Below, one piece after another: positions 3,110 to 51,413 of a DNA stretch of 64,000 nt (the stretch's first letter is position 1; every line of letters begins with the position of its first letter). The stretch is from Hydrurus foetidus (lineage: Eukaryota). The notes beneath the pieces were generated by a model. That model was given only the letters and a program-made list of their open reading frames with translations. It did not search any database and was not told the DNA's origin. The DNA is taken from the NCBI GenBank assembly GCA_900617105.1, contig UYFQ01000163.1, forward strand, positions 1-64,000. Direction: 5' to 3'. The position numbers and the translations under genes are program-made.

Positions 3110-3329
3110 CGCATGTTGGAGTATCCGGAGAAAATACACTGCTGTAGTTGTATAGTATATGTGTGGATCCTGACGGTCAGCGGTGTGCATCTCGGGGATG
3201 TGGACTGTGGACCGTTGGTTGTGTGGGCTCATGGAGCCATCCATTCATCTATCTTCAACATGGATAGAACATGTGCAATTGCCTTGATATGTAAAGCTTC
3301 GTTGCCGACTTGATTGATGCCGGTGCACA

Positions 3330-3441
3330 AGTTTAATTATCAAGTAATTATACAACACAAGTCTATTTTACGAGCCTTGGGTCACCGGTAGCACGAGTCA
3401 CTAAGCATCCGGACTTAGAGAAAGCCCAACATAATTAAACT
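3330..3441 (+). promoter_or_regulatory. Putative self-priming pair, element 1: LTR motif AGTTTAATTAT (3330-3340) / PBS ATAATTAAACT (3431-3441)
   Basis: Exact 11-nt reverse complement including the LTR terminal A. No TGG/tRNA-type PBS follows the LTR. Confidence 0.75.
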
Positions 3442-3456
3442 AATCAGCGCATCGAG

Positions 3457-6400
3457 ATGCCGCCGTAGAAACAAGAAGAGCCAAAATCAGGTGCAGAGCA
3501 GTGCATGCTGAAATTTGGGCGTTACAACAACGTGGTGCAGTAAAGGGAAGATATGCAGAACGAGGCATGCGGCCTCTACGGGATGACGGGCACGTTCTTC
3601 ACCACCAACAAGAGTTACGTCCATCCGTATCCTCGCGAGGAGGACTACAATCCCACCTTTCTAACGGTGGAAATCGATACCCCGACAGCGGGTACCGAAA
3701 ACGAAGACGAGGAAGACGAGTCCGTAGACTTCGAAAATGTCATGATCGGGCCACAGCTTCCTCCAGAGCCCCCTGTCGTGTACTCCGAGGCACTTATCGA
3801 CAGGCTGAGAGCCAATGCGTTCGAGGGACGCCGCAAGGCAGTAGAGACTCAAAAAGTCGACGAGCAAAAGCTCTTCCCACTCATGTGGTCGAGAATGTCG
3901 ACGGGGTCCAAATCCAAGGTGCGCGAGGAACCAGGATTCGAAGCGGCCCGTCTCAGACTTGACAGTGTGAAACTGTGGGAGTACATTCGTAGGAGCCACT
4001 TAACTCACATCTACGGAGAAGATGATTCAATGAGAGCAATGAACGTTCACGAGCAAACGATTAGGTACAACTACCTCAGACAAGGTGAACGTGAAATAAT
4101 AGGCGATTTCAAGACACGCTTCGACAATCAGGTACTAGCCAACAGAGGTGTTGGCATGACTGAAGTAGAAGAACCGATTAGAGCAATCGACTTCCTCAGT
4201 AAGTTAGACCCGAAAAGGTATACCGGTATGTTGACACTGATGCGTAACAACGCTGTACAAAACCTGCCGAATAGTTTCCCTTCCACCTTAGCCGGAGCCT
4301 ACAGGGTCGCGTCATCCTGGACCAGCTCGGGCGGCGGAGTCCCCCTCAGAGCCGAGCAACATTCCGCATTCCTCACTGACTCTTTGATAGGCACAAAGGA
4401 AAAAGTCGTGGGAAAAGGATCGAAGGGGAAGACAGCGGGGACGAAGAAGAAAGTATCGTCAGTGATATGTTTCGTATGCGGAAAGACGGGTCATTTCGCC
4501 AGAGATTGTGAGCAACGCAAAGATGGAGAGCACGCTCTACTCACCAGCGTTGAAGAAGATATTGAGGAGGACGACGAGAGCATAGAAGCAGCCTTCGTCG
4601 CGACAGACGAAGTCGTCCTTTTCACTCGCAATCACGTGCTTCTAGACAACCAAGCTTCGGTCAACATCTTTTGCAACCCAAGCCTACTCACGGATATCAG
4701 GAAATCGCAACACGCGATCCTGCTCAATGGAGTACAGTCCGAAGCGCATGGAGTCAGAGTCGACCAAGAAGGAGACTTTGGCGAGATTGGACCTGTCTAC
4801 TTCAGTCGTGGGGTAACGGCCAACATACTGTCCTTCGCCGCGATGGCAGACAGTGGAGCAGACATCAGCTACGACCATGAGGCAGGATGCTTCATGCTAC
4901 GACCAGCAGGCAGCACGACCAAGTACAGCTTCAGCAGGCAAGACTTGCCAGGTTCGACAGGCAGATTCTATGTGTAGGACGCAAGCAGGATGGAAGGACA
5001 GACACATCGACCTGCAGAGCAGGCGATGGTGACGACAGTTCAAGACAATATGGCGAGGTTCACTAAACGAGAGATAGGATCAGCAGCAGCAGCCAGAGAG
5101 CTGTTAGCACGGATGGGTTACCCATCGGTCGAGATGGCAATCGCGATGATCAGGGGAGGCAACAACTTCAACGTCTCGGAAGCGGATTTCAGGAATGCCC
5201 ATTCCATCTGGGGTAAATGTCTCGCCAGCCTCAGAGGCAAGACTCATAAGAAGTCTTCACCTGTGGCAGACATCTCGCTGACACCTGCGCTAGCGCAGCA
5301 GCAACAAGTATTGAGTGTAGACATTATGTATCTGGAGACTACAGCGATACTTATCGCGGTTTCTACCCCTCTGGATATGACACTCGCTGTCAGCCTAATT
5401 CGACTTGATACCGAGAAGACCTCGCGAGCAGCAGAAGTTGTGAAGCCGGCCCTATGTGAGATGATATCCATACTAAAATCCAGGAACTTCTTGGTGCAAG
5501 TCGTCATGTCCGACGGGGAGGGTGCTATCGGCAAAATGAGGCTTGATCTGCTAGCACTAGGAATAGAGGTAGATGTCAGTGCAGCTGGCGGACATGTAGC
5601 CAGAATCGAACGGCGGATTCAGATGGTGAAGGAGCGAGCACGTGCTCACCTCTGCGGTAGGCTCCCATTTGCTCCAACTGAATTGTGTCTAAGCTATCTA
5701 GCACTCTACTGTGTCTCTCGCATCAACTGTCAGCAGTCAGGATCAAGGCCAGGGGGTCTTTCGCCAAGGGAATTATTCTCCGGACGGCGGGTTGACGGGA
5801 ACCTGGACTTCCGTGCCGCCTTTGGAGACTACGCTGTTTGTACCGTACCGAATACCAACAACACTATGCAATCACGAACTGAAGATTGCATTGTCATGCT
5901 GCCTACACACAGTAGGACCGGGTCGTTCAAGATGCTCTCACTGGCAACTGGCAAGATCATCACTCGCGACCAATTCAAGATACTGCCGATGCCGCAGTCG
6001 GTCATCGGGACACTGAATGCCATGGCAGTTAAAGAAGGGAAGAAAATCATTCAAACTCAATTGCATGTGTTTGATGAACTGCTATTCGCAAACAGTCTCG
6101 ACAAGTCTAAAATGCCACATTTCATTACCAACCCCCCCCCCCCCCACTCAGGATGCACTTGTCGATGCCGGATCGGTAGACCAACCCACTATCACTGATC
6201 TACAATCAGCCCACAGCATTTACGAGATTTCACGTTCCAATGTGGGGGGGGAGGTACCAGTCCCATTTGAAGCTACAGCATTATCGCCACCAGATGAAAT
6301 CGGAATTGAGGAACCCGATACAATCGGGGTGCAAGTTCGCGACGTCCTTAAACCACCACCCTCACCAGTACCATCACTCGAACCAGACGACAGTCCAGTC

Positions 6401-8275
6401 GACACAGCTGAACTTCACAGCGCGTCATTCCCACAGCAACCAGCACACACTGTGCAACGGACTGTGAGAGAGCAACGTAGAACACCCGCACCAACGGAAC
6501 GTATGGTGACACGGTCAGTCCGTACGAGCGAGGACGCGTTCGTGACGAACGTTGGGAGTATCACCCCTAGACCAGCAGGCACAGGACCTGGAACACACGA
6601 TGTAGAGGAAGTGATGAAGCGACATAGGGAGGAAATGAGCAAGAGCAGCACAGCCAACATCAGTGTCAAAGAGGTGTTTCGCACTAAAGGGGATGAGGCT
6701 AAGAAGGTCATCGTGTCAGAGCTAAAACAGATGATAGACAAGAGGGTATGGGTGCCGGTGATGGGAGGCAAGCTGTCTGCGATGCAGAGAGCAGCGACCA
6801 TCAGATCGTCCATGTTCCTGAAGCAGAAAAACAACCCAGACGGCAGCTTCCTCAAGCTCAAGGCTAGACTGGTCGCAGGGGGCGACCAACAAGACAAGAG
6901 CCTGTACGAGGACTTATCTTCCCCAACTGTGTCCACCAGTTCTGTATTCACACTACTAGCGATTGCAGCACATGAAAGGCGAAGAGTCGCAGTTGTTGAC
7001 ATCAGTGGGGCTTATCTTAATGCGGACATGTCATCGGGAGTGCCGGTGCATATGCGCCTCGATCGCACCATGACAGACATCATTATCAACATCGACCCAT
7101 CGTACGGTAAGTACACGGATGCAATAGGAGGAGTGACCGTGCATCTGAAGAAGGCGCTATACGGGTGTGTCGAGAGCGCCGGATTGTGGTATGAGAGTTT
7201 GCACGTCACGATGCGGGGACTGGGGTACATACAGAATATCAGCGATAAATGCGTATTCAACCGGACGGGCCCAGATGGGCATCAGTGTACTGCAGCAGTA
7301 CACGTCGATGATCTACTCATTACGAGTAAGAGCAAAGACAATATGCTCCACCTAGTCGATGGACTGCGAAAGAGGTACGGAGCAATCACTTTATCGCATG
7401 GTCCTGTCATAAATTATCTCGGTATGGCAATCGACATGCATATACTAGGACAGGCGATGATAACCACCACAGGATACTGTGACGAGATAGTCAAGGTATC
7501 AGGGGTGAAGGGTGCGGCACGGACACCAGCAACAGAAGGACTATTCGAGACAAGTGAGAGTGCCACAGGAGTGACAGAGCCAGTGCGAGTCTGGTTTCAC
7601 AAAGTGGTCGCAATGGTGCTCTACCTAGCCAAGCGTACCAAGCCGGAGTGCCTAGTGGCGGTGGCCTTCCTGGCGACACGTGTGAATAAGTGCACCTCAG
7701 ACGATGTTGACAAGTTACAGCGATTAGTGCGGTACGTACATGCGACGAGGGACAGCGGCGTAGTGCTGAGGCCGGGTGCAGGGGGGATCTCAGTGCGGCT
7801 ATTTGTGGACGCATCCTACGGTGTACACAGTGATGGGAGATCCCACACGGGCAGCTGCGTTGTGATTGGAGACATCGGGGCCGTTCACTGTCGATCTTCG
7901 AAGCAGACGATAGTCACCAAGTCGAGCACGGAGGCGGAGCTGGTGGGGCTGTCCGACTCAGCTAATCAAGGCATATTCATCCGTATTTTTCTCATTGCAC
8001 AGGGTTACAAAATGGAGCCGGTGACCATCTACCAGGACAACCAGTCATGCATGGCCCTGGTGGAGCGTGGCAGATCAGGGGCGGAGCGCACACGCCATAT
8101 CCAGATTCGTTACCTCTGGGTGAAAGAGCGGGTGGTGACCGGTGAGGTGCGTGTGGAGTACTTACGCAGCGAGGATATGTACGCGAACGTACTGACCAAG
8201 CCGCTTCAAGGTTGCCAGTTCCAAAGAGAGAGAGATGGGCTCACGGGGTGGTCCACGGTGGACGAGAAGAATTAA
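3457..8275 (+). pseudogene. Copia gag-pol polyprotein, disrupted (element 1)
   Basis: Zn knuckle CFVCGKTGHFARDC, PR LLDNQAS, IN VDIM...SDGE...ERRI, RT KARLVAGG...LKKALYG...HVDDLL, RH DASY...STEAE...QDN. In-frame stops at 3466, 3541 and 4975; frameshift at the poly-C run 6132-6145. Confidence 0.93.
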
Positions 8276-9221
8276 GGGTGCCGGCAACAAGGACAGCTCA
8301 CCGTCAAACGATAATTAGTTAGACATTACTGCTTGCAAATCCATTCACATTTATTTTATTGCTGACATGAAAATCCATTGCGTGCCTGGGTACTCAACTA
8401 CTACGTGACTGTTGGGTGTGTTGGAGTATCCGGAGAAAATACACTGCTGTAGTTGTATAGTATATGTGTGGATCCTGACGGTCAGCGGTGTGCATCTCGG
8501 GGATGTGGACTGTGGACCGTTGGTTGTGTGGGCTCATGGAGCCATCCATTCATCTATCTTCAACATGGATAGAACATGTGCAATTGCCTTGATATGTAAA
8601 GCTTCGTTGCCGACTTGATTGATGCCGGTGCACAAGTTTAATTATCAAGTAATTATACAGCACAAGTCTATTTTACGAGCCTTGGGTCACCGGTAGCACG
8701 AGTCACTAAGCATCCGGACTTAGAGAAAGCCCAACAGCGCACGACATACCAAACGGAATGTGAGCCCCTACCGTGTTGAGGATTATTCAATTCCGAGACA
8801 CCGACAACTTCCGCAAAGACTGCCAGTTCACCGATAATGCCCAAGAATCGTAGATATCGAAATATGCTAGAAACTAGATATTAAAACTTGTGCGCTATCA
8901 TTCCCATTGATAGACACGAAGCTACCTGAGTTGCAGTTACAGTACAAATCCTAATCTACGATCCATGACGTATGGATACCGTCATATCTTTCATGCATGA
9001 AATCAATCCGTTGGAGACACTACACATACGGATCCATCCGGTTACAATCCTACATCAAAGTTCCTGATCCCAGAAACTCCAACATACCCCTAGGACTGTA
9101 AATAGGTGGTACTTATGAAGCAAGGCAACCAACAGAATACAAAATGATTATCATAAAATTTACGGCGACTAGACTATATAAAAGCTTATGTCTCATCTCA
9201 AAGGGTGACATACCTTTCACT

Positions 9222-12200
9222 TCATTTGATTTCTGTCACGACAATGGAAGGCACTCCCCATCCTGTGAGACTTGCTTTCTCATAGACGAACTGAGAACCC
9301 TGGAGGGGTTTTGTCAGTACATTCGCATACATCTCCTTTGTGCCTTTATGCATTATTCTCATTTCACCCATGTCGACTCGTTCCTTGGTCCAGAAATACC
9401 GGATAGCGACATGTCTAGTTCGTTCTGCACCTGAACGTCCTCGTGCCAGTAAGGCCATGCATGATAAGTTGTCTTGGTACACTATCAAAGGAACCATCCG
9501 ATATCCTTGCATGGAGGAAATTCCTAATGTATAGGCCTTGGTTAGCTGAATCCGATAGTCCTACAAGCTCTGCCTCAGTGCTGCTTTTCGCTACTATCTG
9601 CTGCTTCATGGAGCGACAGTGCACCGCTCCTATGTCTCCGATAACGACGCATGACCCAGTATGAGATTTCCCGTCCCTATGAACTCCGTATGACGCGTCC
9701 ACATACAGCCTCACAACTATACCTAATACCCCCGGTCTAAGCACCACGCCATGGTCTGAGGTCCACCTGATGTACCGCACCATTCTGTGCAACTTCTCTA
9801 CATCACGTACAGTGCATCTTGTGACTCTGGTTGCCAGGTAAGCTACTCCAGTCAGGCACTCTGGTCTTGTGCGTTTGGCGAGATAGAGGAGCTGCGCAAC
9901 TACTCGATGGAACCAAACTCGCAAATTTTCGCTCACATAGTCTGACTCGTCATCGTCGAACAGGGTGTCCGACGCTGGAGTTCGAGCTGTCCCGGTCACC
10001 CCTGATGTCAATAGAATCTCATTGACAAACCCGCACATAGTAAGTCTGGCTTCACCTGAGTGAGTCAAGTCAATGGACATACCGAGGTAGTTGATCATAT
10101 CATCGTACTTGAGAGAAATGTCTCCGTATATTCTCTTCAGACCATCGGTCAGTTCGTGTATCATGTCTGTGCTCATACTTGTAATTAGCAAGTCATCAAC
10201 ATGAACACAGAGTGTGCACTGCACCCCGTCTTTGCTCGCTTTGTTGTACACACAGATGTCTGTTTCGTTTCTGACGTACCCCAATCCCTTTAGGGATAAT
10301 CTGAGATTCTCGTACCAGAGTGATGCACTCTCTACACACCCATATAGTGTCTTTTTTAATAGCAATATTATGGACCCGTTCCTCTGACGATACCCAGAAT
10401 ACATTGGGTTGATCTTCACCATGTACTCGCTCATCGTGTTATCTAATCGCATATGCACCTGGATACTCTTCGGCATCACCGCATTTAGAAATGCACTTCC
10501 TATGTCCACTACTGCCACGTGCCTCTTCTCATGTGCAGCTATCGCAATAATGGTAAACACTGCACTGGTGGATACGGTGGGTGAGGATAGGTCCTCGTAC
10601 AGGTCCTTGTTCTGCATGTCTCCTCCTGCCACCAGCCTCGCCTTGTATTTATCGAAGGATCCATCAGGATGTATCTTTCTCTTGAGGAACATCGAAGATC
10701 TGATCACTGATGCTCTCTGTGATGCGTCTAGATCTTCAGCGTGCATGGGTTTCCATACCTTCAGCGTATCCATCTGTGTCAGCTCCTTGACAATCACCCT
10801 CTCTGCATCCTCTCCCCTGGTTCTTGACATTCACATTAGAACTTGGGTCTAGTATCCCTTCCCTATTTCGCTTCTCGAGAAATGCAGTGATGGACTCGAC
10901 TGCTGAGCTCGATAGTTTGACCTTTATCGGTGTCACCCCTGATGTGACCAGGGCCGCACCCTCGATGTTGCGGTTGTTCTGCTGCCATCTTGTACGGTAC
11001 CGATGTGGAAGTGGAACTGGTAAGCTGGATGGGTGTGGTGGTGGACGTGATTGGCTAACGGGCGACTCCTCCTGTGACACTGATGTGTCCGCATGGCCAG
11101 TGTCTGTTTCCACTATGTGGTCCTCAGTGACGTGTCGGTCTTCATTGTTGCGTGTATCCTCGTGCACTGGTGTGCCCTCCAGTTGAATTTGATCTGGGGG
11201 ATCTAGTGTGAACTCATTGTCGGGAAGCTCAGGTGACACTGCTTTGACAACTCTGACTCCTCCCTCGACATGCTGCACGTCATCGTCTGTTAGTGCAGGT
11301 ACTGGATCGAGTGTGTCAGCAAGCACCAGTGGCTCAGCATGAGTAGGATTGTCGGTTATAAGAGCTAGTGCACCCATATCCTTGATGGCGGGTTGAAGAG
11401 GAAGAAATGTTGGCATATTATGCTTGCTGACACTTTGATTATATATCAGGTCATACACAGCAGCAGGTAATTTCGACATGTAACGCCCATCGAGTGCTGC
11501 AAGATCATTCATGACTTTGATGATGGCAGTAGTTGTAGGTACGATTCTGATGGTATCTCGTGTGACAATCGACCCGGTGCTGACATTCAGACATTTCACA
11601 CTTCCCGTTCTGTTGCCGGTTGGGAGGTATAGGATCCCCTGCCCGATCCGCGACTTCATATCACTGCTTGTGTATGGTTCTGTATACACAACTGAATCAC
11701 ATAAAGCCCCTCGAAAGTCTTTTCCCGCATCGACCCTCTGGCCTGTGAATGCTTCACGTGGCGTGAGCCCTCCAAGTCGCGTGCTTGAGTGTTGATAGTT
11801 CAGCCGAGAAATGCAGAATAGGATGAGGAAGGATAGGCCAACAATGTTGAGCGCGTACGGAAGTCTCCCACAAATATGTGCGCGAACCCTTTCTTTGATG
11901 ACTCTTATAAGTCGCTCGATACGAGCTACGTGGCCTCCTGCTCCGCTAACGTCAACCTCGATTCCCATGCTGTTGAGCTGAGGTGTAAGTTTCGCGATAG
12001 CACCCTCTCCATCGCTGTAGATCACCAGGGTGAGGAAATTCCTTGACTTCAATGTTGACCGTATGATGTCGAGGGCCTTCTTCACGGACTCTGCTGTTCT
12101 GCTTGCTTTCCCGGAGGTCGTCCTATCAAGTGTGACACCGAATGTCAGGTCAAGTGGATATGCCACTGCGACGAGAGTGCTGACTTGGTCTATGAACATG

Positions 12201-14097
12201 ATATCTATGACTACTGTCTGCTGCTGCTGGAGCACTGGAACACTCAGTGAGGTGTTTGGTGCCATAGATTTGGACCTTGTTGTCTTGCCTCTCATCGACG
12301 CGATATCAGGGCCCCAAATAGCGTCGGCTACCTTGAAGTCGTAGGGTGTGACATCGAATCCAGTTCCATCCCTCAGCATCGCGATCGCATTCTCTACTGA
12401 TGGATAGCCCAGCCTGGCTAGAAGGTCTCTGGCTTTCTTCGCTCCGATCACTGCTCGCTTTGTATATCTGGTCAAGTTGTCAGATACAGTTGTAACGAAG
12501 GCATCATCAGCGCTTTGCCCCATCTTGCAAACGTAGAACTTGCTTTGGCTACCTGGCAATTGTCTCCTACCAAAGCTGTAGATGGTTTGGCTGCCTTTCG
12601 GCTGAACAGTGAATCGATTATCTCTTAAGTGATAATTCACTTTCGCTCCCGAGTCGACCAAAGTTGACATCGAGAGGATGTTTGCGCTGGCGTTTTGGCT
12701 GTAGTACACCATTCCAATGTCGCCAAGTTTTCCTTGTTGACTGACTCGAACTCCGCTGGCATTGGCTTGAACTCCGTTCACGGTAATCGGATGTTTCGAT
12801 TCTTTAATGTCGGTTAGAAGCTTGCTGTTCTTGAAGAGATGAACGGTAGATCCGTTGTCGAAGACAACATCATCCATCGACAAAAGTGTTGTCTCCTCAG
12901 CTGTGAGATAAGCTACTTCATCGTCAATTTCTCCCAGGTATTGGCCGATCTCCTGACTGTCGTGTTCATCATCCAGTTTTGAGACGAGTAAGGCCATGTC
13001 CGGCATCTTTCTAAGCGAGCAGTCCCGGGCAATGTGGCCGAACTTTCCACAGACGAAACAAGCTTGCCCAGGAACTCTTTTCACTTTTTCTTTTTCTTCT
13101 TTATCCACAGGCTTTGGATCTATGATTTCCTTTGAACTTTTCAAATTCTTGCCCTTCCCAGCGATGAATGCTGTATCGGCAAGAAATGCGGAGTGTGAAT
13201 CACTACCCATAGGAACCAGCAACCCATCTCTGGTCCAAGTTGAGGCGGTACGATAGGCGGCTTGTAGGGTGCGTGGGTAAGCACCAGGTACGTTTTGACA
13301 TGCGTTATTACGCATAATCGTAAGCATACCATTGTATCGTTTGTGATCCAATTTACCAATAAAGTCCATTGCGCGTAGTCGATCACTAATTTCAGGTATC
13401 CCAACACCCTCATTGCTCTTGACTTGATGATCGAACCTTATCTTAAAATCCGATATGAACTCTCTTGCTCCTTGTTTAAGATTGTGATATCTCATTGTCT
13501 GGTCATGGACGTTGGCAGCAGACATCTCGTCGTGTCACCGAACATATGGGTACGATGACTTTTACTGATGTATGTCCACAGCTTGATGGAGTCGAGGTTG
13601 AGACAAGCTACCTCGAATCCTGGCTCCTCCCGGACCTTAGACTGAGACTGGGGTGACATTCTTGCCCATGTCTTTCCCCACATTTTCCGTAGTGCTAAGT
13701 GCGCGGCCTCTTCTCGTTTCCTCCTTGCCTCGTACGCTCCCTCACGGAGTTTGTTAACGAGTTTTACTAGGGTTGCCGCAGGTATATCGGGCACCGGTAC
13801 ATGGACCTCTCCAATGTCCTCCTCTTCCTCACCAAGCTCATCATTGGGTGGTGGGACTGGCCCCACTAATACTTCAGCCGCAGGCTCGACGTAGAAAGGA
13901 TTGTATTCCCTTTCATGAGGAAAGGGAAATCTGAACGCGACATTCGTGTAGAAGTAGGTCCCCTCTTCTCCGAACTCCTCAGTGGCGAGATTATACATCG
14001 CCTCACGCCACTGAATCACGTTGTTGTTTTTACCTATTTTCAGGATACACTCCTCAGGAGTTTTTGCACCAGCCTCTGCTGGTTTCGTCTTTGGCAT
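9222..14097 (-). pseudogene. Copia gag-pol polyprotein, frameshifted (element 2)
   Basis: Four consecutive ORFs (13492-14097, 10736-13525, 9415-10830, 9222-9512) carry gag, CFVCGKFGHIARDC, VFDNGS, IN SDGE, RT HVDDLL and RH. Frameshifts near 13530, 10825 and 9515. Confidence 0.93.
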
Positions 14098-14112
14098 ACT
14101 CTTACGCCGAAG

Positions 14113-14235
14113 GTTTTAATATGTTGAGGATTATTCAATTCCGAGACACCGACAACTTCCGCAAAGACTGCCAGTTCACCGATAATGCCCAAGAATCGTA
14201 GATATCGAAATATGCTAGAAACTAGATATTAAAAC
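14113..14235 (-). promoter_or_regulatory. Putative self-priming pair, element 2: LTR motif GTTTTAATAT (minus, 14235-14226) / PBS ATATTAAAAC (minus, 14122-14113)
   Basis: Exact 10-nt reverse complement including the LTR terminal A. No tRNA-type PBS. Confidence 0.72.
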
Positions 14236-15026
14236 TTGTGCGCTATCATTCCCATTGATAGACACGAAGCTACCTGAGTTGCAGTTACAGTACAAATCCT
14301 AATCTACGATCCATGACGTATGGATACCGTCATATCTTTCATGCATGAAATCAATCCGTTGGAGACACTACACATACGGATCCATCCGGTTACAATCCTA
14401 CATCAAAGTTCCTGATCCCAGAAACTCCAACATACCGTACTGTTTCACTTTGGATATTGTGTTATTGTGTTCGGTTAAAACCGTTAAAACACCCTGTATT
14501 CTCTGATGACTGCTACAGTCAACCTTGTGAAGAGAATCTGTGTTTCTTCAATGTTCCTTGCACTTGTAAAATTTACTTGAAGCTCCTCTTGATAAAGTCT
14601 TGCTCGTATAGGCGCGCTTTCCTATACGCTCGAGACTCCGCAGAAAGGAGTTCTAAAGGGGCTCTCTTTTGGGTTATTTACTTGGCAAAGAAATATGCAA
14701 CAAGCATTGCAAATGGTTGCATAAAAGCATGTTTGATGGTTGCACTATTTCCTTTTCGATGGTTGCGTGCAGCAACGTAAATTGTCTACTTAGGTAGTGT
14801 ATTGATTGCATAAATGAAGATTCATACCACAACAAGATACAAGTCACATCACTCGAAGGGATCTCGGATCAGAGAATCCCGAACATACCCCTTGAAGTGT
14901 ATTGTATACATTGGTTGACGGAAGTGAAAATGAAAAAAGAAGAAACGGCAACTTGAAAGTCACTTGCATGAAAGTAGTGTTGGATGCGAATACAGATGTC
15001 GAGTTGAGAACATTTACTCGAATGAA

Positions 15027-18000
15027 TTACACAACTGTTGATTCTCTGTGGCGGCCACAATTCAATCCGACAAGCTTTGACCGAAGCATCTCGAAGAGGG
15101 CGCCATGGAGTGGCTTAGTCAGGATGTCAGCCACCATCTCTCCTGTTGGCAGGTAAACTATGGCAACCTCGTTTGTTTCCACATAATGACTGATGAAGAA
15201 ATACCTTATCTTGAGATGCTTGTTGCGCTCGCTTGTTGACCTTCCTTTATTCGCTAGGCATAACGTTGACTGATTATCTTGATAAATTACTGCAGGTCCA
15301 ACTGGGACGCCTTGGTGGATCAACAACTCGCGAGTCCATAGCACTTGAGAGAGAGCATCCGACAAGCCAACCAGCTCGGCCTCAGTCGATGATCTGGTAA
15401 CAATTTTCTGCTTGACGCTCTTAACGTACACTGTAGCTTCGCCAATTTGAATGACTACTCCAGTGACTGACTTCATATCACCATATGTGCCGAAGGAAGC
15501 GTCAACGTAAGCGTTGATCTGGATTGCTCCTCCAATCCTCAGCAGGAGGACATTTCCTCGAGTTGTCATTAAATACGACAATATGGGATCAAGTTTCTTC
15601 TCGTCATCTTCATCCGGGAATAGCACCCTCGTTGCGCAGTAGGAAACTGCAGTGAGGATATCTCACCTGATGCGCTTCGCCAGGTACATTCTGGATTTGT
15701 AACGAACAGCATATCCGTGGCTGGAGATTTCGCCTTTGTTTTCACGCTGTACTTATTCAAGATGTTTTCTACATATCCACTCATAGATAATGTGGCTTCC
15801 CCTGCAACGCTGAAGTTCCAGTGGATACCCAGGAAATCGTGCTCGTTGCCGACTTTGACGGTAATATCAGTATACTTTTGTCTAAGTGCATCAGCAATTG
15901 ATGTTAGCACCGACTGAACTTTGGATGATATCATGAGATCATCCACGTAGACTAAAATTGAGTCGATTCTTCCGTCTGTCTCTCTGACAAATGAACACTC
16001 ATCATATGGGTTCTTTGTGAATCCTAGGCTGCCCAGAGTGGAAGAGAGCTCCTTGTACCAAAGGACGGCTGATTCAATACAGCCGTAAAGGGCTTTCCGA
16101 AGCTTGACGACGATCGTACCATCTGTTCTCAAATAACGGAGATAGCTTGGTGTCAGTTTGCACAGGAGAGATGAAACTTCTTTTGGGAGTTTTACATGCA
16201 CTGCGCGATCCATCATTGCTGCATTGAGGTACGCAGCTTTGTGATCCAAAGTCATGACATGTTCTCCTCTATGTGCTGCAATCGATGCTGTAATGAGGAC
16301 TGAACTAAGGGCAACTGTTGGTGACGATGTTTCTACTTCTCTGTACAATGATCTGTCTTGCCTATGTCCACCTGCTACCAATCGTGCTTTCATGCGATCG
16401 ATACTGCCATTTGGTAGTTTCTTCGGCGTCAGGAACATTTTCGACGGTATTATTGATTTTGCATTATTTGCTGGATCGAGAAACTCGAAGACCTCTTTCT
16501 TAATCAAATTCCGTAACTCCTCTAGGACGGCCTTGTCCGTCGCTTCGTTGCCGAATTGTGTCGCCGCTTCTCTGATGGTGAGGGTCGCATAGACATGCCG
16601 TTCAACTGTTGATTGTCTGAAATTGTACCCTCGATTCATTTCATTACGTGCTGATCTTAAGGCTTCGACACTCTGCGATATCTGATCCTCTATCTCAGAG
16701 ACATCGTCTTCAACATCGTGAATTTCATTTGCGTCAACTTCATTATCTACCTCTAAGCTGACCATATCATCTGCATTATCATTTCTAGATGTTTCTTGAG
16801 GTGCTGCATTCGCTGGTATGAGAACGGTTCCCGCTTGATCGTGATCCTGGTCCTCATCCTCCAATGGTTGAGCTTCCTCGTAGTTTGGGGTGGTGTTGTT
16901 CTTATCGGGAATTGTGGTGGCATCTTCTGGAGTGGATTCTATATCGTGATCCTTCATCTCTACCCCTCGATCTGAATCGAGTCCATAAGGTGCATTGGGA
17001 TCAGCTAGTGCTGGCTCAGGTGAAAGGACACCAAGGTCATCGGGTTTGAGCGCCCCGGCTAGTTGTTGGAGCCTTGCTATGGCTGCCTGAGTCAACGGTG
17101 CCGGACGAAAAACGTCGCCAGTGACTGTAGCGAGTGTATCCAGATTAAGACACTTATGCGTTCCTTTAATGTTGCGGGTTGTTCCCAACCAGATGCAGTA
17201 GTCAGCTCGGGGCAGACCGGTGTTACTCTGGGTTCCTTGAGCACGCTGCAAAAATCCTGCAATCCCGAATGCGAACGGAGCATCCACTTTGTAGTTGGGA
17301 ATTCGGCCTTTGAAAGCAGTATATGCAGGAAGATGTCCTGGCGAATTCAGTTTTGGTACCATGTTCGAGGTGTGGACGACGAAGGTGATTAATGCCGCAG
17401 CCAATTTGGATGGAAGCGCGAAAGGTAGGCTGTGAAGTGTAGATCTTGCTTTGTTCTTAATGTGTCTTATAGCTGACTCGGCATGAGGGGTGTGGGAACC
17501 ACGGCCGAGTATATTGAGTTCAATTCCTAGTTCTTCCACTTCTTGACGGCTTGATTTAACTGCGCCTTCACCATCTGACGTTACAGATGATACGCGAAAT
17601 CCTTTGGCGTGGTATTGAGCAAGGTGCAAAAGGAGAGCCTTTCCAGCTTTTGCACGAGACTTCTCCGAATGCTTGTCCTTTGACGATGTGGAATCCTGAC
17701 CGGGCCCAAGGGGAGTGACCATAATCAACCCGAGCAGTACGGATATACTGAGGAAGAACGCCTGTCCTAGAAAATAGAAGAGGTCAACCTGCAGTTCCTG
17801 ATTGACAGACTGGTGGAGAGGGATAGGGTCATCCTCGCGGCACTTTGAGTTACGTTGCGTGCCTTGTCCGAGCTGGTAAGCTGCAGGTATACCATATATT
17901 TGTTGTGCGTTTACTAGATCTGATCGTGCAAAACTGATGCCTGCCATGCTTCCTCTTTGAATGATCTCTGCGGCAGCCTTGTAACTAATATATCCCATCC

Positions 18001-19375
18001 TCTGCATAAACTCGTATGCATCACGCGCACCCGTTAGCTGCCGTTTGGTGTACTCTGCCGCTTTGGAACTAACTGATACTACGAATGCCTGCTGGATCGT
18101 CTCGAGGTCCATAATATAATGACCGTTGATACAATGAAAGGTAAGCGTTGGACCGTTGCATGGCACAGCTGTGAACACGTTGCTTACTTCATCATAACTT
18201 AGCGCATGCGTTTCTCGTAGTTTTTGGTAGCTGATGATATTTGCTGTCATTTGGGGACTGTAGTACCCCTTGATGCTAAGATCTCTTATCGTACCCTCTT
18301 TTGTGATTCTTACTCTGTCGCCTGTAATACCTTGTACCGTTACAGGCGAGTCGGCCTGTCGAATATCTGTGGTGATGGTGGAACTGTGTAGAATGTGGAT
18401 GCTGGCTTGAGTGTCTAACAGCAGCAGTGTGTCCTGTCGCCCCGTGATCTTTGACAAATACATGTGATTTGTGTCCTCACAAGCATCAGCAGAGGACCAC
18501 TGTGAGGGAGATTGAAGCTGACACGCGTCCTGGACTGCGCTAAGATAGATCGTCTCATCATCTTCGGCGGCGAAATGAACCCGCTTAACCGGGCATGTCG
18601 TAGACCGATGGCCCTTTTTCCCACACGTCCAACATACGATGTTGTCTGGTGTTGTCGATCCGCCGGAGTTATCTGTAGAAGTAATCTTGGCGATGTCATC
18701 AGTTTCCTTACTTCTTGCTGTCGAACGGCCTCTTCCTCTGCCGCCACGGCCGCCGCGACCGCGACCTCCGCGTCCTCGTCCTCTTCCTCCATCAATTTTG
18801 ATTTCGTCTGCCCTTGAAAGGTAAACACTCTCGAGGTCTCTGATTGTATTTCCTCGGAACCGAATAATCTGAGCATCCTTAATTTCCTTCCATAATGTAG
18901 AGCTTACATCTGGGAGTTCTGCAATCCCACGCCTCTCGTTGTCGAAATAGTCTTTGACCAACGATGCGTATCGCGACATATCTAGGCGGTTAAGGATGCC
19001 GATAACAAGCTCATCTTCTGGGATTATTGGCAAGGCGAGGATTGCTTTGCCCAGGTTGCCAGCAGGAAACTCGTCAGGCATTTCCGGTTCTTCCTCTTCG
19101 TCTCCGTAGGCCGGAGGTGTCGACCAAAACGCCTGGCAAAGGCTGGGCTTGTAGTTTATGGCGACATGTTCACCGATTATTTTGAGGAACTCTATTGGTT
19201 TATTGTCCCTCGCTGGGGCGCCAAAATTCAGGCACGGCAATTCAGCGTTATTGCCCTTGAATTTAGGCTCTCTCTCGGCCTTCGGCTGTGGGCTAGGCCG
19301 CTCGCGGTGGGCATCTCTTCCCTGGCCTCTTTGCCCTTGATCTCTTGATCTTCGACCATGCCCGCGTCCGGACAT
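15027..19375 (-). pseudogene. Copia gag-pol polyprotein with internal deletions (element 3)
   Basis: RGG-rich gag, CWTCGKKGHRSTTC, LLDTQAS, IN SDGE, RT YVDDLM, RH ADILTKPL. Gag is short relative to elements 1 and 2. A deletion/frameshift near 15685 precedes YLAKR. Confidence 0.92.
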
Positions 19376-19456
19376 AATTCTTTTCGACGGATTCTCTCCG
19401 TTACCAGATTCTCTCTGGTTAACTTCGTAGAAAGGATGCTATCCTTCTTGTCTGAT

Positions 19457-19696
19457 ATATTTCTTTGTGTTCGGTTAAAACCGTTAAAACACCCTGTATT
19501 CTCTGATGACTGATGCAGTCAACCTTGTGAAGAGAATCTGTGTTTCTTCAATGTTCCTTGCACTTGTAAAATTAACTTGAAGCTCCTCTTGATAAAGTCT
19601 TGCTCGTATAGGCGCGCTTTCCTATACGCTCGAGACTCCGCAGAAAGGAGTTCTAAAGGGGCTCTCTTTTGGGTTATTTACTTGGCAAAGAAATAT
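19457..19696 (-). promoter_or_regulatory. Putative self-priming pair, element 3: LTR motif ATATTTCTTTG (minus, 19696-19686) / PBS CAAAGAAATAT (minus, 19467-19457)
   Basis: Exact 11-nt reverse complement abutting the LTR end. Confidence 0.78.
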
Positions 19697-20098
19697 GCAA
19701 CAAGCATTGCAAATGGTTGCATAAAAGCATGTTTGATGGTTGCACTATTTCCTTTTCGATGGTTGCGTGCAGCAACGTAAATTGTCTACTTAGGTAGTGT
19801 ATTGATTGCATAAATGAAGATTCATACCACAACAAGATACAAGTCACATCACTCGAAGGGATCTCGGATCAGAGAATCCCGTGTCGGAATAACTAATGAG
19901 CTAAGTAACCGTATAAGTTATTACGTATGTACATTTGATGACGTTTCGTACGTCGTGTGCCGTGTGGTGGTCGCTACTCCACCGGTCCAGGTTCCTTTAA
20001 CCCAGGAACATCAAAAAGATGAAAGTGCACCATGTTTGACTGTGCGGGACAGCGCGATCTTTTCGCCTGTCTCCATGAACGATGTAAGCGATGTTGCA

Positions 20099-20256
20099 TC
20101 GTTAATTACCTTAATACTCACACCAGCAGAGCTTTCGCCTTGAGCCCGGGAAAGTTGCTAGCGCACGTGTTGAACCTGCAGAAGGAGCGCGTACCCAGGA
20201 AGGATATAGTTTTCCATTCAGTGGAAACTGATCCTTAGTTACGACATAATTAACGA
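20099..20256 (+). promoter_or_regulatory. Putative self-priming pair, element 4: LTR motif TCGTTAATTA (20099-20108) / PBS TAATTAACGA (20247-20256)
   Basis: Exact 10-nt reverse complement abutting the LTR end. Confidence 0.75.
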
Positions 20257-20283
20257 GTTGCTTTCGTTGCAACCAGTTGCAAC

Positions 20284-23200
20284 ATGAAAGGCAGAGGCCG
20301 AGGCCGAGAACACAATACCGCAGGCGGTCGAGCAAACCCTGCCAACGGTGGCAGAGGGAATGCTGGCCGCGGTGCGAAGCCTCCACCAAGAACAGGAACG
20401 GTAGCCGCGATCGGCGCATTCCTGGATCTTGGAAGAGAGATGAACCATGGCAGCGTAAGCGCATGGATGAGGAAGTTCCGCGAGTATACTCGCGCGAACT
20501 ATAAGTCCGATATCTCTGAGATATTCGGCAACGAGGGCATACCGGGTGATTACCCGCAATATGTCGCTCCAGCGGACATAGCAGCCGATGCAAATTTATG
20601 GTATCAACAAAATGGAAGCGAGCATTGGAGCTATATGATAGAAATATCCTTACTCTGAGAGAAGACCGAAAGCAAGTCTTCGGACTAATGCTAGGTCAGA
20701 TTAGCGAAGCGTCGAAAGCGACAATTCGAGAAGCTGAAACAGGGCTAGCAGCCATGACTGCGGAGGACCCATTGCTATTGTTGAGAGCAATCATCCTGAC
20801 TCACCTCTCTGATCCGAGGTTGGGAGCCGATCAGAATCTGTTGAGAGTCCGAATGGCCTACGAGACAGTCAAGATGGAGCAGAACGACGTGCTGAAGTAC
20901 TACTATCAACGCTTCAAAGCGTTGAAATCCGGATACGAGGATACGATGCGGGCACTAGGGGTCATGCCCGAGTTCAACGAGGCCATGACCGCACACAATG
21001 AAGTTCTAACAGGGATGAAGTTCATGAACGGCCTGAACTCCGGTTACCGTCACTACGTAGAATACTACGAGCACGGCTCAAGGACTGGCCAGACACGCTC
21101 GAGGACGCGTACCTCGAGATGGCCAAGGTCACGCCGAAGAAATCAGCAGCAGCAACACCACCCAACCAGACCAACGTTTTCGCCACGAAAACGGCTGGCG
21201 GTGAGAAACCACTGATGCTGGTAAAGGGAAGGCTAATGGGAACGGGGACAGAGGGAAGGGTGGGCGTACGTCGTACGGCACCCGTCCCGGAAATTGCAAT
21301 AAGTGCGGTGAAGCCGGACACTACTCCTATGAGTGTACGGCCAAGGATAGCCAAGCGGGTGCATCAGCACCCAGTGGAAAGTCGGTAAACTAAGTAAGAT
21401 ACATTATTCCTCACCTGTACACTCACCCACACTTACATCCACACACACACCTATACATACACTCACCGATCCTCCATGTTTGGCTGATTCCACTAGCGGA
21501 ATTGAAACATGTGATCATATTGTTTTTAGTGCCAATACATGCAATATATATAACATGATTAGAAGTAGACACATTCTGCTTGACACATGTGCTGGTGAGT
21601 CGGTTTTCAACGACTCATCCCTGCTGTATAATGTCGAACACGCACCCACACCTATGATTGTTAGCGGGGTGAATCCGAAAGGAAAACCGCTGATAATCAA
21701 GAAACGTGGGGTGTCGGCGTTCGGCAACGTGTATTATAGCCCTGACTGTGCTGGTAACATATTGTCTTTTGGTAATGCTGTACGTGACTGTACTGATGTT
21801 AAGTACTTACATGACTATGATTGTTACATAGTGCAAGACGTCAGCGGAAAATATTTTTATAGATTCTCACGAGATGAGACTATGAATATATACCAATGTA
21901 ATCTTGACACTATGGTAACAGAATGCATGCCAATGTTAGTTACGACAGTAGAGCAGAATAAGAAGAAGTATACAGTAAGAGAAGTCAGAGACGCGTCGTT
22001 AGCTAGAGACTATCAGCGTAGACTAGGATACGCTAGCGCAGCACAGACTATTAAGTTGATATCCCAAGGGAATTTGACTAATAGCAAAGTGACTGCGCGA
22101 GACGTACATAGAGCCATTGATATATGGGGACCGGACGTGGGATCCCTTAAGGGGAAGACCACTAGTCACCAGGCCAAGTTAGAAGAGAAGCTACCACTGA
22201 TAGGTATTGAGTACAAGACAGAACAGATTATGTACGTAGATATAATGTTTGTCAACCAAGTACCATATCTAGTATCAGTTGTGCAGCCCATCGAGTTCCT
22301 ATACGTTAGCAAGTTAGCTAACCGAGAGCACAAGAGCATATGGAACAGCCTAAAGACTTCATTAGCAAGCATGGTAAAGTACAGATTCAGAGTTAAGATG
22401 ATCCGAGTAGACGGCGAGGGTGCAATCAATACAGAATGGTTTCACAACAAAGTCGGCTTAAGAGGTATAGTACTAGACGTTACCGGAGCCGGAGAAGCCG
22501 TAGCCGTAGTCGAGCGTAAGATACGACACATAAAGGAGAGAGTAAGATCAGTAGTCAATTCTCTACCGTTCTCATTGAATGAGAAATTAGAAGTGTGGTT
22601 AGTTAAGTATGCAGTCAGTAGAATTGTATTAGCACCCACACGTAACTCACTTAATCACATCAGTCCACGAGAGAAATTAACTGGAAGAAAGTTAGACGTA
22701 GATAAGGAGATTAAACATGGTTTTGGTGATTATGTCCAAGTGCATAATGATGTCATTGATAACTCTACCAAACCAAGAACAGCCGGGGCCATAGCACTTA
22801 TGAGCTCCGGTAATCTAGAAGGTTCATGGTACTACATGCTGTTAGCTAACGAACGTATTGTTAAACGTACTAAAGCGACTGTACTACCTATGCCTGATGA
22901 AGTGATATTACACTTGAATGTACTAGCTTCAAAGAGAAAAACTGCCAATGTTAAACAGCCTGTATTTGAGAATAGTAGTCACATTGTATTCGATGATGAT
23001 GACGATGTTGAAGATGATAGTGCTTACATTGGTGATGTTGAATATGAAACTGTCGATGAAAATGCTAACGCAGATTACACCGATGAGATTATTGAAGATA
23101 ACGATCACAATGATAACGAAACACATCTTGAATCACAACTCGATATGTCTGATGAAAATCACCCACCCACATTAGATGAGTATGTAGATGACACACTATA

Positions 23201-25210
23201 TGTGAGTGACACTACATACGACAATGACGAACTATATTATGATGACACACATGATGATACACATGTACCCCAACCTAAATATGATCAAGCACTGATAGAT
23301 GACATATTTGGCATAAGTGATGATGAAGATGACTTTGCTGATGTAACTGTACACACTGAAGTATTCACACCACCTGCCACCATAATTGAAACCGCATATG
23401 ACCCACCTGTTGTAAACTCACCCGTGTTACGTAGAAGTGGTAGAAATCACCAACTTGGTAAATGGGATAAGAAATATGTTGGTAATCTGTTCTACAACCA
23501 CACTCACCTGTACAAAATGACTGTTAATGAAGGAATTAATAAGTTAGGGGTGATAGCTGTTGATTCCATTACATCTGAATTGAAACAAATGTGTGATAAG
23601 AATGTTTGGGAAGGTGTAACTTATGAATCCCTCACCCCACAACAAAAACGCACCATTATACCTAGTAGCATGTTCTTGAAAGAAAAGTATACTGCTGATG
23701 GTATGTTTGAAAAACTGAAATCTAGACTAGTAGCCGGTGGGCACTTACAAGATAGAGATGTTTATAACAATGGCGCCTCACCTACTGCTAGCACATACTG
23801 ACTGCAATTGCTGCTAGACAGAAGCGTGCTGTCGCCACTGTTGACTTCCCCGGTGCATTCCTAAATAGTGATATGCCGCTGACCGTCGACCGTGTTGTAT
23901 ACATGCGTTTGAATAAACAACTGACTGCTGCACTAATTAAGATTGATGCAACATATAACAAATACATGAATAACAATGGAACATGCATTGTTAAAGCTTT
24001 ATATGGATGCGTTGAATCTGCAAAATTATGGTATGATAAACTATCTAATGATTTGATCAAATTCAATTATATAGCTAATGAATATGACATCTGCGTATTC
24101 AACCGAACTGAATCGGATAACACACAAACATCACTCGTAATTCATGTTGATGATATGATAATCACTGCTTCAAGTGAATCTTGCGTTGATGATGTTATAA
24201 AAAAAATTGAAACTACATATCCCGGTTTAACGAAACACAGAGGAAAAGTTTTAAATTACATAGGCATGACTTTCGACTTCAGCAAGGAAGGTTGCGTTAA
24301 GATGACTATGGAGGGCTTCGTGCAAGACCTCATTGAGGGGTGTAAGGATATGCCGGGCACGGCAAACACACCTGCACGAGCCAATCTATTCACTATACCT
24401 GATGAATCTGACTCACCCTTACCTGATAATCTGCGTGAGCGTTTTCACTCTATTACAGCGAAGCTACTCTACCTGAGTAAGAGGACGAGGCCAGACATTC
24501 TGACTGCCGTAGCGTTCCTGACCAAGAGAGTTCTGAGGCCCCAAAGGGACGACTACAACAAACTGACCCGTACGATACAGAACATACGGGGCAGTCAGCA
24601 TACGGGTATGATATTTGAAGGATATGAACCTATTTATGTTATTGCATATATCGATGCATCCTTTACCATACATCCCGATATGAAAAGTCACACAGGCAGC
24701 GTAATCACCCTGGGAAAGGGAGCGATCTACGCCAAGAGCAGTACTCAGCGCCTTATGACAAAGTCCAGCACGGAGGCCGAATTGGTCGCACTCAGTGACG
24801 CCTCCAACCAAGTGCTGCGGACTAGGAACTTCCTAGAGTGCCAGGGACATCTCCAACCTCCCGCCTTAGTGTATCAAGACAATACGATACAGCTGATACG
24901 TAACAGTCGCTCGAACAGCGAACGTACGCGGCACATTGATGTACGGTATTTTTTCTTGCACGACAGAATCAATACAGGCGATGTAGACATTGTGTACCTA
25001 CCTACTACTGACATGATTGCAGACATTCTAACCAAGCCACTGCAGGGTGAATTGTTCAAGAAGCTCAGGAAGGAGCTGCTCAACACTTCACCACCTACCC
25101 TCACGTACGCAGATGGATGCAAGACTGAGGACCGTACGGACTCCGCGCCGACACCCGTACGCACCAAATTCAACCCACGATTTCCATACCCTACGTCCAA
25201 GAAGAACTAA
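20284..25210 (+). pseudogene. Copia gag and pol, frameshifted (element 4)
   Basis: RGG-rich N-terminus, CNKCGEAGHYSYEC (starts 21295), LLDTCAG, IN VDIM...VDGE...ERKI, RT KSRLVAGG...HVDDMI, RH ADILTKPL. Several frameshifts and short deletions. Confidence 0.92.
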
Positions 25211-25289
25211 TACCTACCGACGAAGAATCCATCCGACATGCTACCCCCCTCCATCTTACCCTTCTACAACGCCGCTGTCCGCTTCAGCT

Positions 25290-25465
25290 GAAGACTGAAC
25301 ACTCAAGACCCCAAGACTCCGTCATTCCTACTGCCCCCACATCCGACTCTACTACCCCATCAGCGCGCGTCATGACGAAGACTGACCACTCAAGACACCA
25401 AGACTCCATCATTCCTGCTGCCCCCCTCCATCACTTTTCTTCTACCCCATCAAGTGCGACTCAAG
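25290..25465 (+). repeat. ~87-bp tandem duplication in the 3' UTR of element 4
   Basis: GAAGACTGA.CACTCAAGAC.CCAAGACTCC.TCATTCCT.CTGCCCCC starts at both 25290 and 25377. Confidence 0.8.
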
Positions 25466-26202
25466 AAAACCCTGACAGAGACATAAAGAGCGAGGACCGT
25501 GGACCCAGACCCAAGACCCGATTCCGGAATCAGATAGTATAACAAGTCAGAAAATTATTTTAAGTGTAATCTTTTGCGTGTTACATAAAGTCTTTTTAGA
25601 ATTGTTTAACTCTATGCTCATTCGGATCAGTCAGACCTTATGATACTAATATTACCCTGCATGCAATAAATTATCTAACGTCACAATTAAGGTCAACCCC
25701 ACCATTACCCTACTTCCCTACAATATAAAATCATGTTCTGATACACCATTTGTGAAGCTTCAAGTAAACGGAGCATTTTTGAATTCTATTGCGTTTTCAT
25801 TCGCGTACACCAACCCGACGACTCACGCCATAGGGGTGTGTCGGAATAACTGTGTGCTAAGTAACCGTATAAGTTATTACGTATGTACATTTGATGACGT
25901 TTCGTACGTCGTGTGCTGTGTGGTGGTCGCTACTCCACCGGTCCAGGTTCCTTTAACCCAGGAACATCAAAATGATGAAAGTGCACCATGTTTGACTGTG
26001 CAGGACAGCGCGATCTTTTCGCCTGTCTCCATGAACGATGTAAGCGATGTTGCATCGTTAATTACCTTAATACTCACACCAGCAGAGCTTTCGCCTTGAG
26101 CCCGGGAAAGTTGCTAGCGCACGTGTTGAACCTGCAGAAGGAGCGCGTACCCAGGAAGGATATAGTTGTCCATTCAGTGGAAACTGATCCTTAGTTACGA
26201 CA

Positions 26203-26227
26203 CCCCCTCTCCTTTTGTACCCCCTTG
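26203..26227. mobile_element. Orphan right TIR of a P-like element
   Basis: CCCCCTCTCCTTTTGTACCCCCTTG matches the TIR at 3085-3109 with one mismatch and directly abuts the 3' LTR of element 4. Confidence 0.75.
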
Positions 26228-26578
26228 GTGAGACAGTAGAAGATGCTGCCGAACAGCAGCAATCACGACACGGATGTTCTCAACGGGAGCAATCGCTGCG
26301 CCAGCTCTTTACAATTGATAAGCTGTTGTAATTCGTGGGAAATGATAACACGTAATTATAAACTCTGATGGGATATTTGAGTAATGCAACATGACTCATA
26401 ATGATCGCTGAGTAGGTATCAATTCGCCATAACTTGAATCTTCATTCGGCATGTGCCGCAATTTTAGGTCGAAACTGCTTCATGGTGAGTAAGCCTCTCC
26501 GATACATCAGTGACAGAGACACAGCAACTACCAGGGAACTCCGACTCAATTCATCATAGTTGTTCCTGTCATTTGGCG

Positions 26579-36237: not shown

Positions 36238-36667
36238 TGTATCTATTTGTTCTACTATTCGACAATGTTCTGGGGAATTTGATCTAGATAGAAGAAGATC
36301 ATTTTAAATTTTTAACGATGAAGTGGTTATTGCATAATCAACATGACAGCAGAGAGGTGAAGTGGAGTTTACTCGACTTCCAATCTTCCAACGCAGGTAT
36401 AGGGTAGTTCAGAGTCTTCACGTTCCGAACGGTACCAAACTGAACGCGTGTGTGACACGAAACTTTTAACCGTATACAACCGTTTACCGTACTGTTTGGC
36501 GATTCTGGCATGACCACCAGATCCGACATCTTGTTACCTCATGCACTCTCCCCTACTCATTCAGTTCCACTTGGAATACAGCGTTCATTCGAAAAAGGAT
36601 CCCTCCGCCAGCAAAAGTGGTCTCTTCGCAATCAGTGCATATCTGATAATTTTGACGATTCCAAGAT

Positions 36668-51110: not shown

Positions 51111-51413
51111 CTCAAATCAACTTTCAGATGTTGAATTGATGTCGATTAGGATGAGTTGTTAGTAATATAAATATTTTTTTCCTAATTATGTACCTGTACA
51201 ATCGAGGTACAAAAAAACTCAAGAATTTTGTCACAAGGGGCCTGTTTTGTACCTTGACAAAAACAGGAAATTCACTTTTTTTTTTGTTTTTTGTTTTTTG
51301 TACTTCACTACAATCGAGAATCCAAGTAAGAGGTACAAAACAGGAATTTTGTATTTTGTATTTTGTACTCCACTGGGACCGACCTAAGGGGGTCTCTTTA
51401 GACCCCTTTTTTC

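Follow-up and report, generated by a model that had tools for sequence, protein, structure and literature searches.

Predicted self-priming from the RNA 5′ end in a cluster of Ty1/copia retrotransposons from Hydrurus foetidus

Four adjacent copia elements in a Hydrurus foetidus contig

We analyzed a stretch of 64,000 nucleotides from Hydrurus foetidus (NCBI GenBank assembly GCA_900617105.1, contig UYFQ01000163.1, positions 1 to 64,000 of the forward strand), called the window throughout. A scan of the window for pairs of long terminal repeats (LTRs) returned four, which delimit four Ty1/copia elements at 3114-26202. In each, the primer binding site (PBS) next to the 5′ LTR is complementary to a short motif within that same LTR, an arrangement that probably allows the element's own RNA to prime reverse transcription. 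The elements are as follows.

3114..8736, plus strand: Element 1 (E1), Ty1/copia, LTRs at 3114-3431 and 8419-8736
8405..8418, plus strand: position of the E1 polypurine tract, ending in TTGGGTG
8774..14432, minus strand: Element 2 (E2), Ty1/copia, sister of E1, LTRs at 14122-14432 (5′) and 8774-9084 (3′)
14468..19881, minus strand: Element 3 (E3), Ty1/copia, 3′ LTR at 14468-14885 (418 bp), 5′ LTR at 19468-19881
19882..26202, plus strand: Element 4 (E4), Ty1/copia, LTRs at 19882-20246 and 25839-26202

All four elements have a polypurine tract and TG…CA LTRs, and target site duplications (TSDs) of 5 bp flank E1 and E2. The E1 LTRs are 318 bp each with 1 mismatch (TSD GCGCA), and the E2 pair is identical at 311 bp (TSD TACCG). 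The 5′ LTR of E3 lacks its first 4 nt and adjoins E4 directly at 19881/19882; the E4 LTRs have 5 differing sites and one indel, and E4 has no TSD. The contact between E3 and E4, taken with the missing TSD, suggests a recombinant or deletion junction. Pfam matches include RVT_2 in E1-E4 (E values of 1e-13 to 1e-24) and zf-CCHC in E1-E3. The domain order is gag(zf-CCHC)-protease-integrase-reverse transcriptase (RT)-RNase H (RH), with an integrase-like region upstream of RT. We assign all four elements to Ty1/copia because of RVT_2, the zinc knuckle (E1-E3), and this domain order. The reading frames of all four are interrupted in this assembly, and the E1 polyprotein is split into several pieces.

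An earlier note on this DNA, made from the sequence alone, had described the polyproteins of E1 and E2 as clearly related. They are indeed sister elements, with 63% identity over RT-RH, compared with 42-43% to E4 and 37-39% to E3. An RT-RH tree places E1 and E2 in one clade with two relatives described below, L079 and L082, at a FastTree support of 0.998.

The four families are distinct, adjacent, and un-nested, with spacers of 37 bp (8737-8773), 35 bp (14433-14467), and 0 bp. Such a cluster may mark a hot spot for insertion or a site that is targeted. In runs X1-X3, the E1 family (window 3000-8800) is represented by many divergent contigs with hundreds of variable sites. Unlike the E1 family, the E2 internal region is covered in these runs by only a few long contigs.

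Each PBS complements a motif in its own LTR

The positions of the motifs and their PBSs are listed here.

3325..3329, plus strand: GCACA context in E1, common to E2, containing the CA step of the putative initiator
3330-3340, plus strand: E1 motif AGTTTAATTAT as first read, with PBS region ATAATTAAACT at 3431-3441
3330..3339, plus strand: E1 predicted self-primer AGTTTAATTA
3432..3441, plus strand: E1 PBS TAATTAAACT, its first base abutting the LTR end
14235..14226, minus strand: E2 motif GTTTTAATAT as first read, with PBS region ATATTAAAAC at 14122..14113
14227..14235, minus strand: E2 predicted self-primer core GTTTTAATA, with GCACAA just before it
14113..14121, minus strand: E2 PBS TATTAAAAC
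19686..19696, minus strand: E3 predicted self-primer ATATTTCTTTG, beginning at the A of a CA step
19457..19467, minus strand: E3 PBS CAAAGAAATAT
20099..20108, plus strand: E4 predicted self-primer TCGTTAATTA, immediately after CA
20247..20256, plus strand: E4 PBS TAATTAACGA

Counted from the first post-LTR base, the perfect complements span 10 bp in E1, 9 bp in E2, 11 bp in E3, and 10 bp in E4; the E2 complement reaches 10 bp only if the last base of the LTR (A) is counted. The PBS letters of the earlier note are correct, except that their first A closes the LTR (…CA) and lies outside the PBS. E3, which that note did not mention, shows the same arrangement. When each LTR is shuffled, the complement recurs 15 (E1), 89 (E2), 3 (E3), and 10 (E4) times per 20,000. 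A 4 × 4 matrix of PBSs against LTRs shows that the own LTR is best for each PBS, with matches of 9-11 bp to the own LTR and 3-7 bp to the others. The RNA duplex energies for E1-E4 range from -6.2 to -10.3 kcal/mol.

The GCACAA context previously noted before the E1 and E2 motifs has 4 matches, all in E1/E2 LTR copies, against 0.13 expected. Judged from the sequence, it is likely the transcription start site of these two elements. E4 had been proposed as a third compensated variant. Its motif and PBS do pair perfectly; the compensation relative to E1 holds by register only.

The arrangement recurs across a broad set of relatives

Relatives were collected with an RT-RH alignment, which was used instead of an integrase alignment too divergent for locus scans. 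This gave 78 metagenome loci (from the best 80 of at least 402 confirmed) and 44 genome-bin loci. A closed stretch running from RNase H through the LTR to gag was present in 44 of the 122 loci, the others being too short or open-ended, and removal of L084, a duplicate of L083, left 43. For each, we took the longest run of perfect complementarity that begins immediately behind a CA and compared it with 100 dinucleotide shuffles. Thirty-four of the 43 relatives beat their own shuffles (p ≤ 0.05). The complement was at least 9 bp in 36/43 and at least 10 bp in 29/43, with a maximum of 20 bp. The chosen site has a terminal inverted repeat (TIR) of at least 5/6 in 28 of 43 relatives, versus 76 of 898 CA sites, and is therefore the LTR end. 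When LTR ends were picked by the inverted repeat alone, complements of at least 9 bp occurred at 27/70 sites, versus 12/617 sites with a poor TIR.

The accepted set comprises 32 relatives and the four window elements, 36 in total. Within it, the PBS matches its own LTR over a mean of 12.0 bp and other LTRs over a mean of 4.85 bp (1260 cross pairs). Only 6 cross pairs reach at least 9 bp, and 2 equal the own match. The first 9-mers of the PBSs are highly diverse (34 distinct among 36), and the trait is spread over the whole ingroup tree at a median RT-RH identity of 43%. Nine open-ended loci were also checked: three are clear (L025, 14 bp; L086, 15 bp; L085, 10 bp), L022 is doubtful, and 5 have too little LTR.

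A distant copia group (L093-L121) yielded no complement of at least 10 bp in 9 loci, where the LTR ends are undefined and the best matches are 5-9 bp. A canonical Met-type PBS was found in no locus examined. The viral contig scan contained no relatives, and RT homology searches returned no informative named taxa among their best 120 matches, one match being labelled as a bacterial bin.

Loci L079-L122 are copia contigs of probable eukaryotic origin within prokaryote genome bins (GTDB), where they likely represent bin contamination. Two further loci, L007 (1-10776) and L061 (1-9843), are either near-identical tandem copies with one common LTR or collapsed circular assemblies.

Register, start site, and folding of the predicted primer

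The pairing respects the LTR boundary closely, extending into the LTR by 0 nt in 23/36 elements, by 1 nt in 13/36, and never by 2. At its other end, the motif starts at a CA step, often TCA, exactly in 20 of the 36 and within 2 nt in 30, against a background of 0.165; the binomial p value of this enrichment is ~2e-18, uncorrected for relatedness. We take this CA step to be a putative Pol II initiator, on the basis of the initiator consensus. The predicted primers would be 9-20 nt long with a median of 11. PBS positions 1-4 are biased to Y-A-A-T (31, 31, 29, and 30 of 36, respectively), and this bias may stem from a preference in cleavage or in initiation. The primer:PBS helix has an ensemble probability of at least 0.5 in 32 of the 34 RNAs that were folded. 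TATA sequences upstream of the motifs are not enriched (5 matches in 36), and an Rfam scan of 1-27000 found no ribozyme in the LTRs.

Mirrored differences between sister elements

Column-based covariation of the R-scape type, the check proposed earlier, would be circular here, as the LTRs are mostly unalignable and the helix was found by complementarity. Sister pairs provide non-circular cases because their LTRs are aligned independently of the PBS. The E1 and E2 motifs fall in register in a global LTR alignment (62%) made without the PBS. As the earlier note had stated, they differ at two positions that are mirrored in the PBSs, with positions 3 and 5 swapping A-T to T-A and T-A to A-T. Both differences are real, but they are equally readable as one 1-nt slip, which is how MAFFT gaps the PBS, and perhaps arose in one event. 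Mirrored changes in independently aligned LTRs are also seen in L001/L002 (G-C to C-G), L001/L005, and L088/L052 (A-T to G-C). Furthermore, the E1 family has 16 substituted U5 positions within 3346-3424 and none in 3325-3340 or 3432-3441 (three DNA runs from one study). This invariance of motif and PBS is only suggestive of selection.

The mirroring could also be templated. If the self-primer is copied into the plus-strand PBS, a single mutation in the motif would spread to the PBS by concerted evolution, which is compatible with self-priming. We consider this a serious possibility, if one short of an even chance. According to passages of PMC7472051, retroviruses copy their primer into the plus-strand PBS, but Ty1 (copia) and Ty3 are reported there to inherit the PBS strictly. 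Passages of PMC11042837 state that a copy of the PBS persists as DNA at the 3′ end of ~50% of Tf1 cDNAs. Across the seven most closely related sister pairs, three of them compared by register only, 8 of 13 mirrored changes are transversions, which pass through no G-U intermediate. When 26 elements were examined again with G-U pairs permitted, such pairs lay within the duplex only in L030, L001, and L002. The mirrored transversions fit templating without proving it. If perfect pairing were strictly required, as part of PMC5445492 states for Tf1, the pattern would be the same; the search used here favored Watson-Crick pairs, and L001/L002 retain mismatches in the outer half of the duplex. Selection maintaining the pairing is probably part of the story. 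The earlier claim that selection keeps an intramolecular pairing, with no fixed external primer, stands insofar as each PBS follows its own LTR; selection on paired mutations is one possible source of the mirroring.

Self-priming and its alternatives

We think it quite probable that these elements use Tf1-like self-priming from the 5′ end of their own RNA instead of a tRNA. This reading builds on the copia identity of the elements, the complementarity and its register, the specificity for the own LTR, the mirroring between sister elements, and the enrichment of CA steps, all read directly from the DNA. Transcription would begin at the CA initiator at the 5′ end of the motif, and the RNA 5′ end would fold onto the PBS immediately past the LTR. 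The element's RNase H, by analogy with Tf1, would presumably then cleave behind the motif and free a 3′ OH exactly at the LTR boundary for minus-strand DNA synthesis across U5-R. Released from a fixed tRNA constraint, the primer sequence could drift between families with the PBS following, the pairing being kept by selection and possibly also by primer copying into the plus-strand PBS.

Several points weigh against self-priming. The transcript start, the cleavage, and the priming are proposed by analogy with Tf1 as described in passages of PMC7175516 and PMC4600332. The LTR starts were chosen by eye from polypurine tract candidates after the stretches had been seen, so the shuffle test of the relatives was not fully blind. 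Eleven of the 43 relatives fail the strict acceptance rule. Among these, L001, L002, and L005 have just 7 Watson-Crick pairs plus a partial extension; L088 and L052 (14 bp) and L013 (10 bp) have weak TIRs; and the best match of L059 sits at a doubtful site. Re-examination found no explanation for the failure of L015, L046, and L083; the remaining one, L030, has a pairing of 15 bp including 2 G-U. The duplexes are weak and AU-rich (18% GC). The E1 helix is marginal, with a probability of 0.34 with a 45-nt leader and 0.56 with a 30-nt leader in competition with a local hairpin, and L004 (0.0) and L017 (0.19) fold otherwise. Flanking helices of the Tf1 type are not general (mean z of -0.2 and -0.1; z ≤ -2 in 2 and 4 of 36), as judged by simple duplex energy against shuffles, by which short helices could be missed. 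Lastly, the E1-family pattern has a p value of ~0.02 by a rough count in which the motif's position 25-35 nt from the edge of the compared region may hide variants, and a 1-nt insertion interrupts the E1 PBS in a single X3 contig of low depth.

The helix could instead be real without acting as the primer. A fold of the 5′ end and PBS might serve packaging, dimerisation, or translation control, with the 3′-end copy of the motif or a short transcript acting in trans as the primer in other versions of this idea. The motif is indeed present in both LTR copies, and passages of PMC5445492 describe fungal GalEa copia elements in which a conserved hairpin with a similar TAATTA palindrome occupies the PBS position and U5 holds no complement. 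However, the helix stops exactly at the LTR boundary, where the primer 3′ end is required to lie, a CA step marks the motif 5′ end, and no other primer site is evident. We regard these readings as improbable.

We hold it less likely still that synthesis is primed by a cellular RNA, either a host tRNA (through its 3′ end or as a half-molecule) or some other, with the LTR complement playing a secondary part such as a structural switch. Half-tRNA priming exists in several copia lineages, and the PBS starts are biased to YAATT. Matching to tRNAs was judged from the PBS letters, by TGG and by the anticodon-arm rule, and no tRNA was found within the window. On the other hand, TGG occurs within the first 6 nt in 0/36 PBSs, their 9-mers are nearly all distinct, and the PBS changes of sister pairs track the own LTR. 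Anticodon arms follow the rule Y32 U33 R37. Over four registers, this rule holds in 13/36 PBSs and fails for E1, E3, and E4, and 8 of the 13, including E2, would give a stop-codon anticodon (TTA, CTA, or TCA) in a matching register.

Chance complementarity in AT-rich sequence is hardly credible, even with duplexes that are 82% AT and the E2 shuffle count given above, and was rejected by the shuffles that preserve composition, the control against other LTRs, the coincidence with the TIR, and the initiator signal; the short matches of the nine distant copia loci, with their undefined LTR ends, may also count against it.

A wider proposal is more speculative, and we consider it rather doubtful. 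A broad stramenopile copia lineage may have evolved self-priming independently of the Tf1/sushi elements and of the plant TAR copia elements. Its only helix would be a minimal one that joins the PBS to the capped start of the RNA, and a cut after a conserved …AATTR end would fix the LTR boundary. Unlike Ty1, it would copy the primer into the PBS, so that primer and PBS evolve in concert and are free in sequence and in length (9-20 nt). A large group of algal copia elements with a variable, covarying primer/PBS helix would show tRNA independence to have arisen repeatedly and not to require the "pretzel" structure of Tf1.

The sister pairs and the range of primer lengths offer a natural variant series, and some relatives have single long open reading frames (ORFs). 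The system bears on whether a copia RT/RNase H cleaves and employs the RNA of its own element, and on which of the two, template or primer, passes on the PBS. Extending what passages of PMC7472051 report for endogenous retroviruses, loss of the tRNA primer would remove the target of tRNA-fragment silencing. LTR annotation based on the PBS would miss or misclassify such elements.

Other features of the window

A Sof1/DCAF13 gene lies at 36656-38005. Its best named matches are from Mallomonas (74% over 74% of the length), with EukProt entries at 72% and brown algae and oomycetes at 54-70%. The window is thus eukaryotic, and its host is likely a chrysophyte-like stramenopile. A TIR-like sequence, CCCCCTCTCCTTTT(A/G)TACCCCCTTG, recurs with its inverse at 1078-1286, 1333-3109, and 26203-26228. 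The segment 1333-3109 is enclosed by a 79-nt inverted repeat, and the same TIR-like end is found on both flanks of the copia cluster. These TIR-like repeats are probably non-autonomous DNA transposons. An ORF for a Harbinger-type DDE transposase is located at 49518-51116 on the minus strand (Plant_tran and DDE_Tnp_4 in Pfam). Nested long inverted repeats occupy 895-1074 and include a sub-threshold microRNA-like Rfam match at 915-1055, the sole match in 1-27000. A degenerate AT-rich tandem repeat of TATACAG-like units spans 398-737.

Comparison with known systems

Like Tf1/Tf2 of Schizosaccharomyces pombe and the Tf1/sushi group (Ty3/gypsy chromoviruses; Tj1, Tosmo1-3, and Tcn1), the elements described here have a PBS right after the 5′ LTR that would complement the RNA 5′ end. 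In Tf1, pairing with the PBS involves the initial 11 bases of the RNA, which RNase H cleaves between bases 11 and 12 (passages of PMC7175516). The Tf1 primer of ~11 nt agrees with our median, whereas primer length varies here. Unlike Tf1/sushi, the window elements are copia, with integrase before RT, an RVT_2 domain, and no chromo match in Pfam. They also differ from the three-duplex "pretzel" described for Tf1 in part of bioRxiv 2022.12.06.519325, as flanking duplexes are no better than shuffles in most of the 36 elements.

Passages of PMC6317226 predict self-priming for 89% of 203 plant TAR copia elements (Houba, Osr-1), using a complement of at least 10 bp located 0-5 bp after the 5′ LTR. 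E1, E3, and E4 have such a complement outright, and E2 has it only with the last base of the LTR. Unlike TAR, the host here is a stramenopile. The RT motifs (…ARLVAGG…, KALYGCVES…LWY, HVDD, and DASYGVH) differ from those typical of plant copia, and the lineage may have arisen independently of TAR. The protease and RT motifs of the window elements presumably resemble those of diatom CoDi-I.

Like the diatom CoDi copia elements in passages of PMC2806351 (Maumus et al. 2009), the elements are Ty1/copia from a stramenopile, measure 5-6 kb, and have TG…CA ends. Those passages give no priming mechanism for CoDi, and "tRNA" has 0 occurrences in the main text. A further likeness is to the "conserved hairpin site" of fungal GalEa (Donnart et al. 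2017, passages of PMC5445492), which are also copia elements without a tRNA PBS and with a TAATTA-type sequence right after the LTR. In GalEa, those passages place the partner 12-41 bp downstream, with a nearly fixed sequence and no U5 complement, whereas the partner in the present elements is upstream, within the LTR, and is freely variable.

The literature consulted, which was mainly open-access with few subscription papers, contained no description of self-priming for the copia elements of stramenopiles or diatoms. In that literature, experimental proof of self-priming is confined to Tf1, of the gypsy class, and the copia case is a prediction in one plant lineage. Self-priming itself is therefore not categorically new, as Tf1 and plant TAR copia precede it. 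What is new is the absence of general Tf1-type flanking helices, the initiator signal, the compensation in sister pairs, and the probable chrysophyte host.

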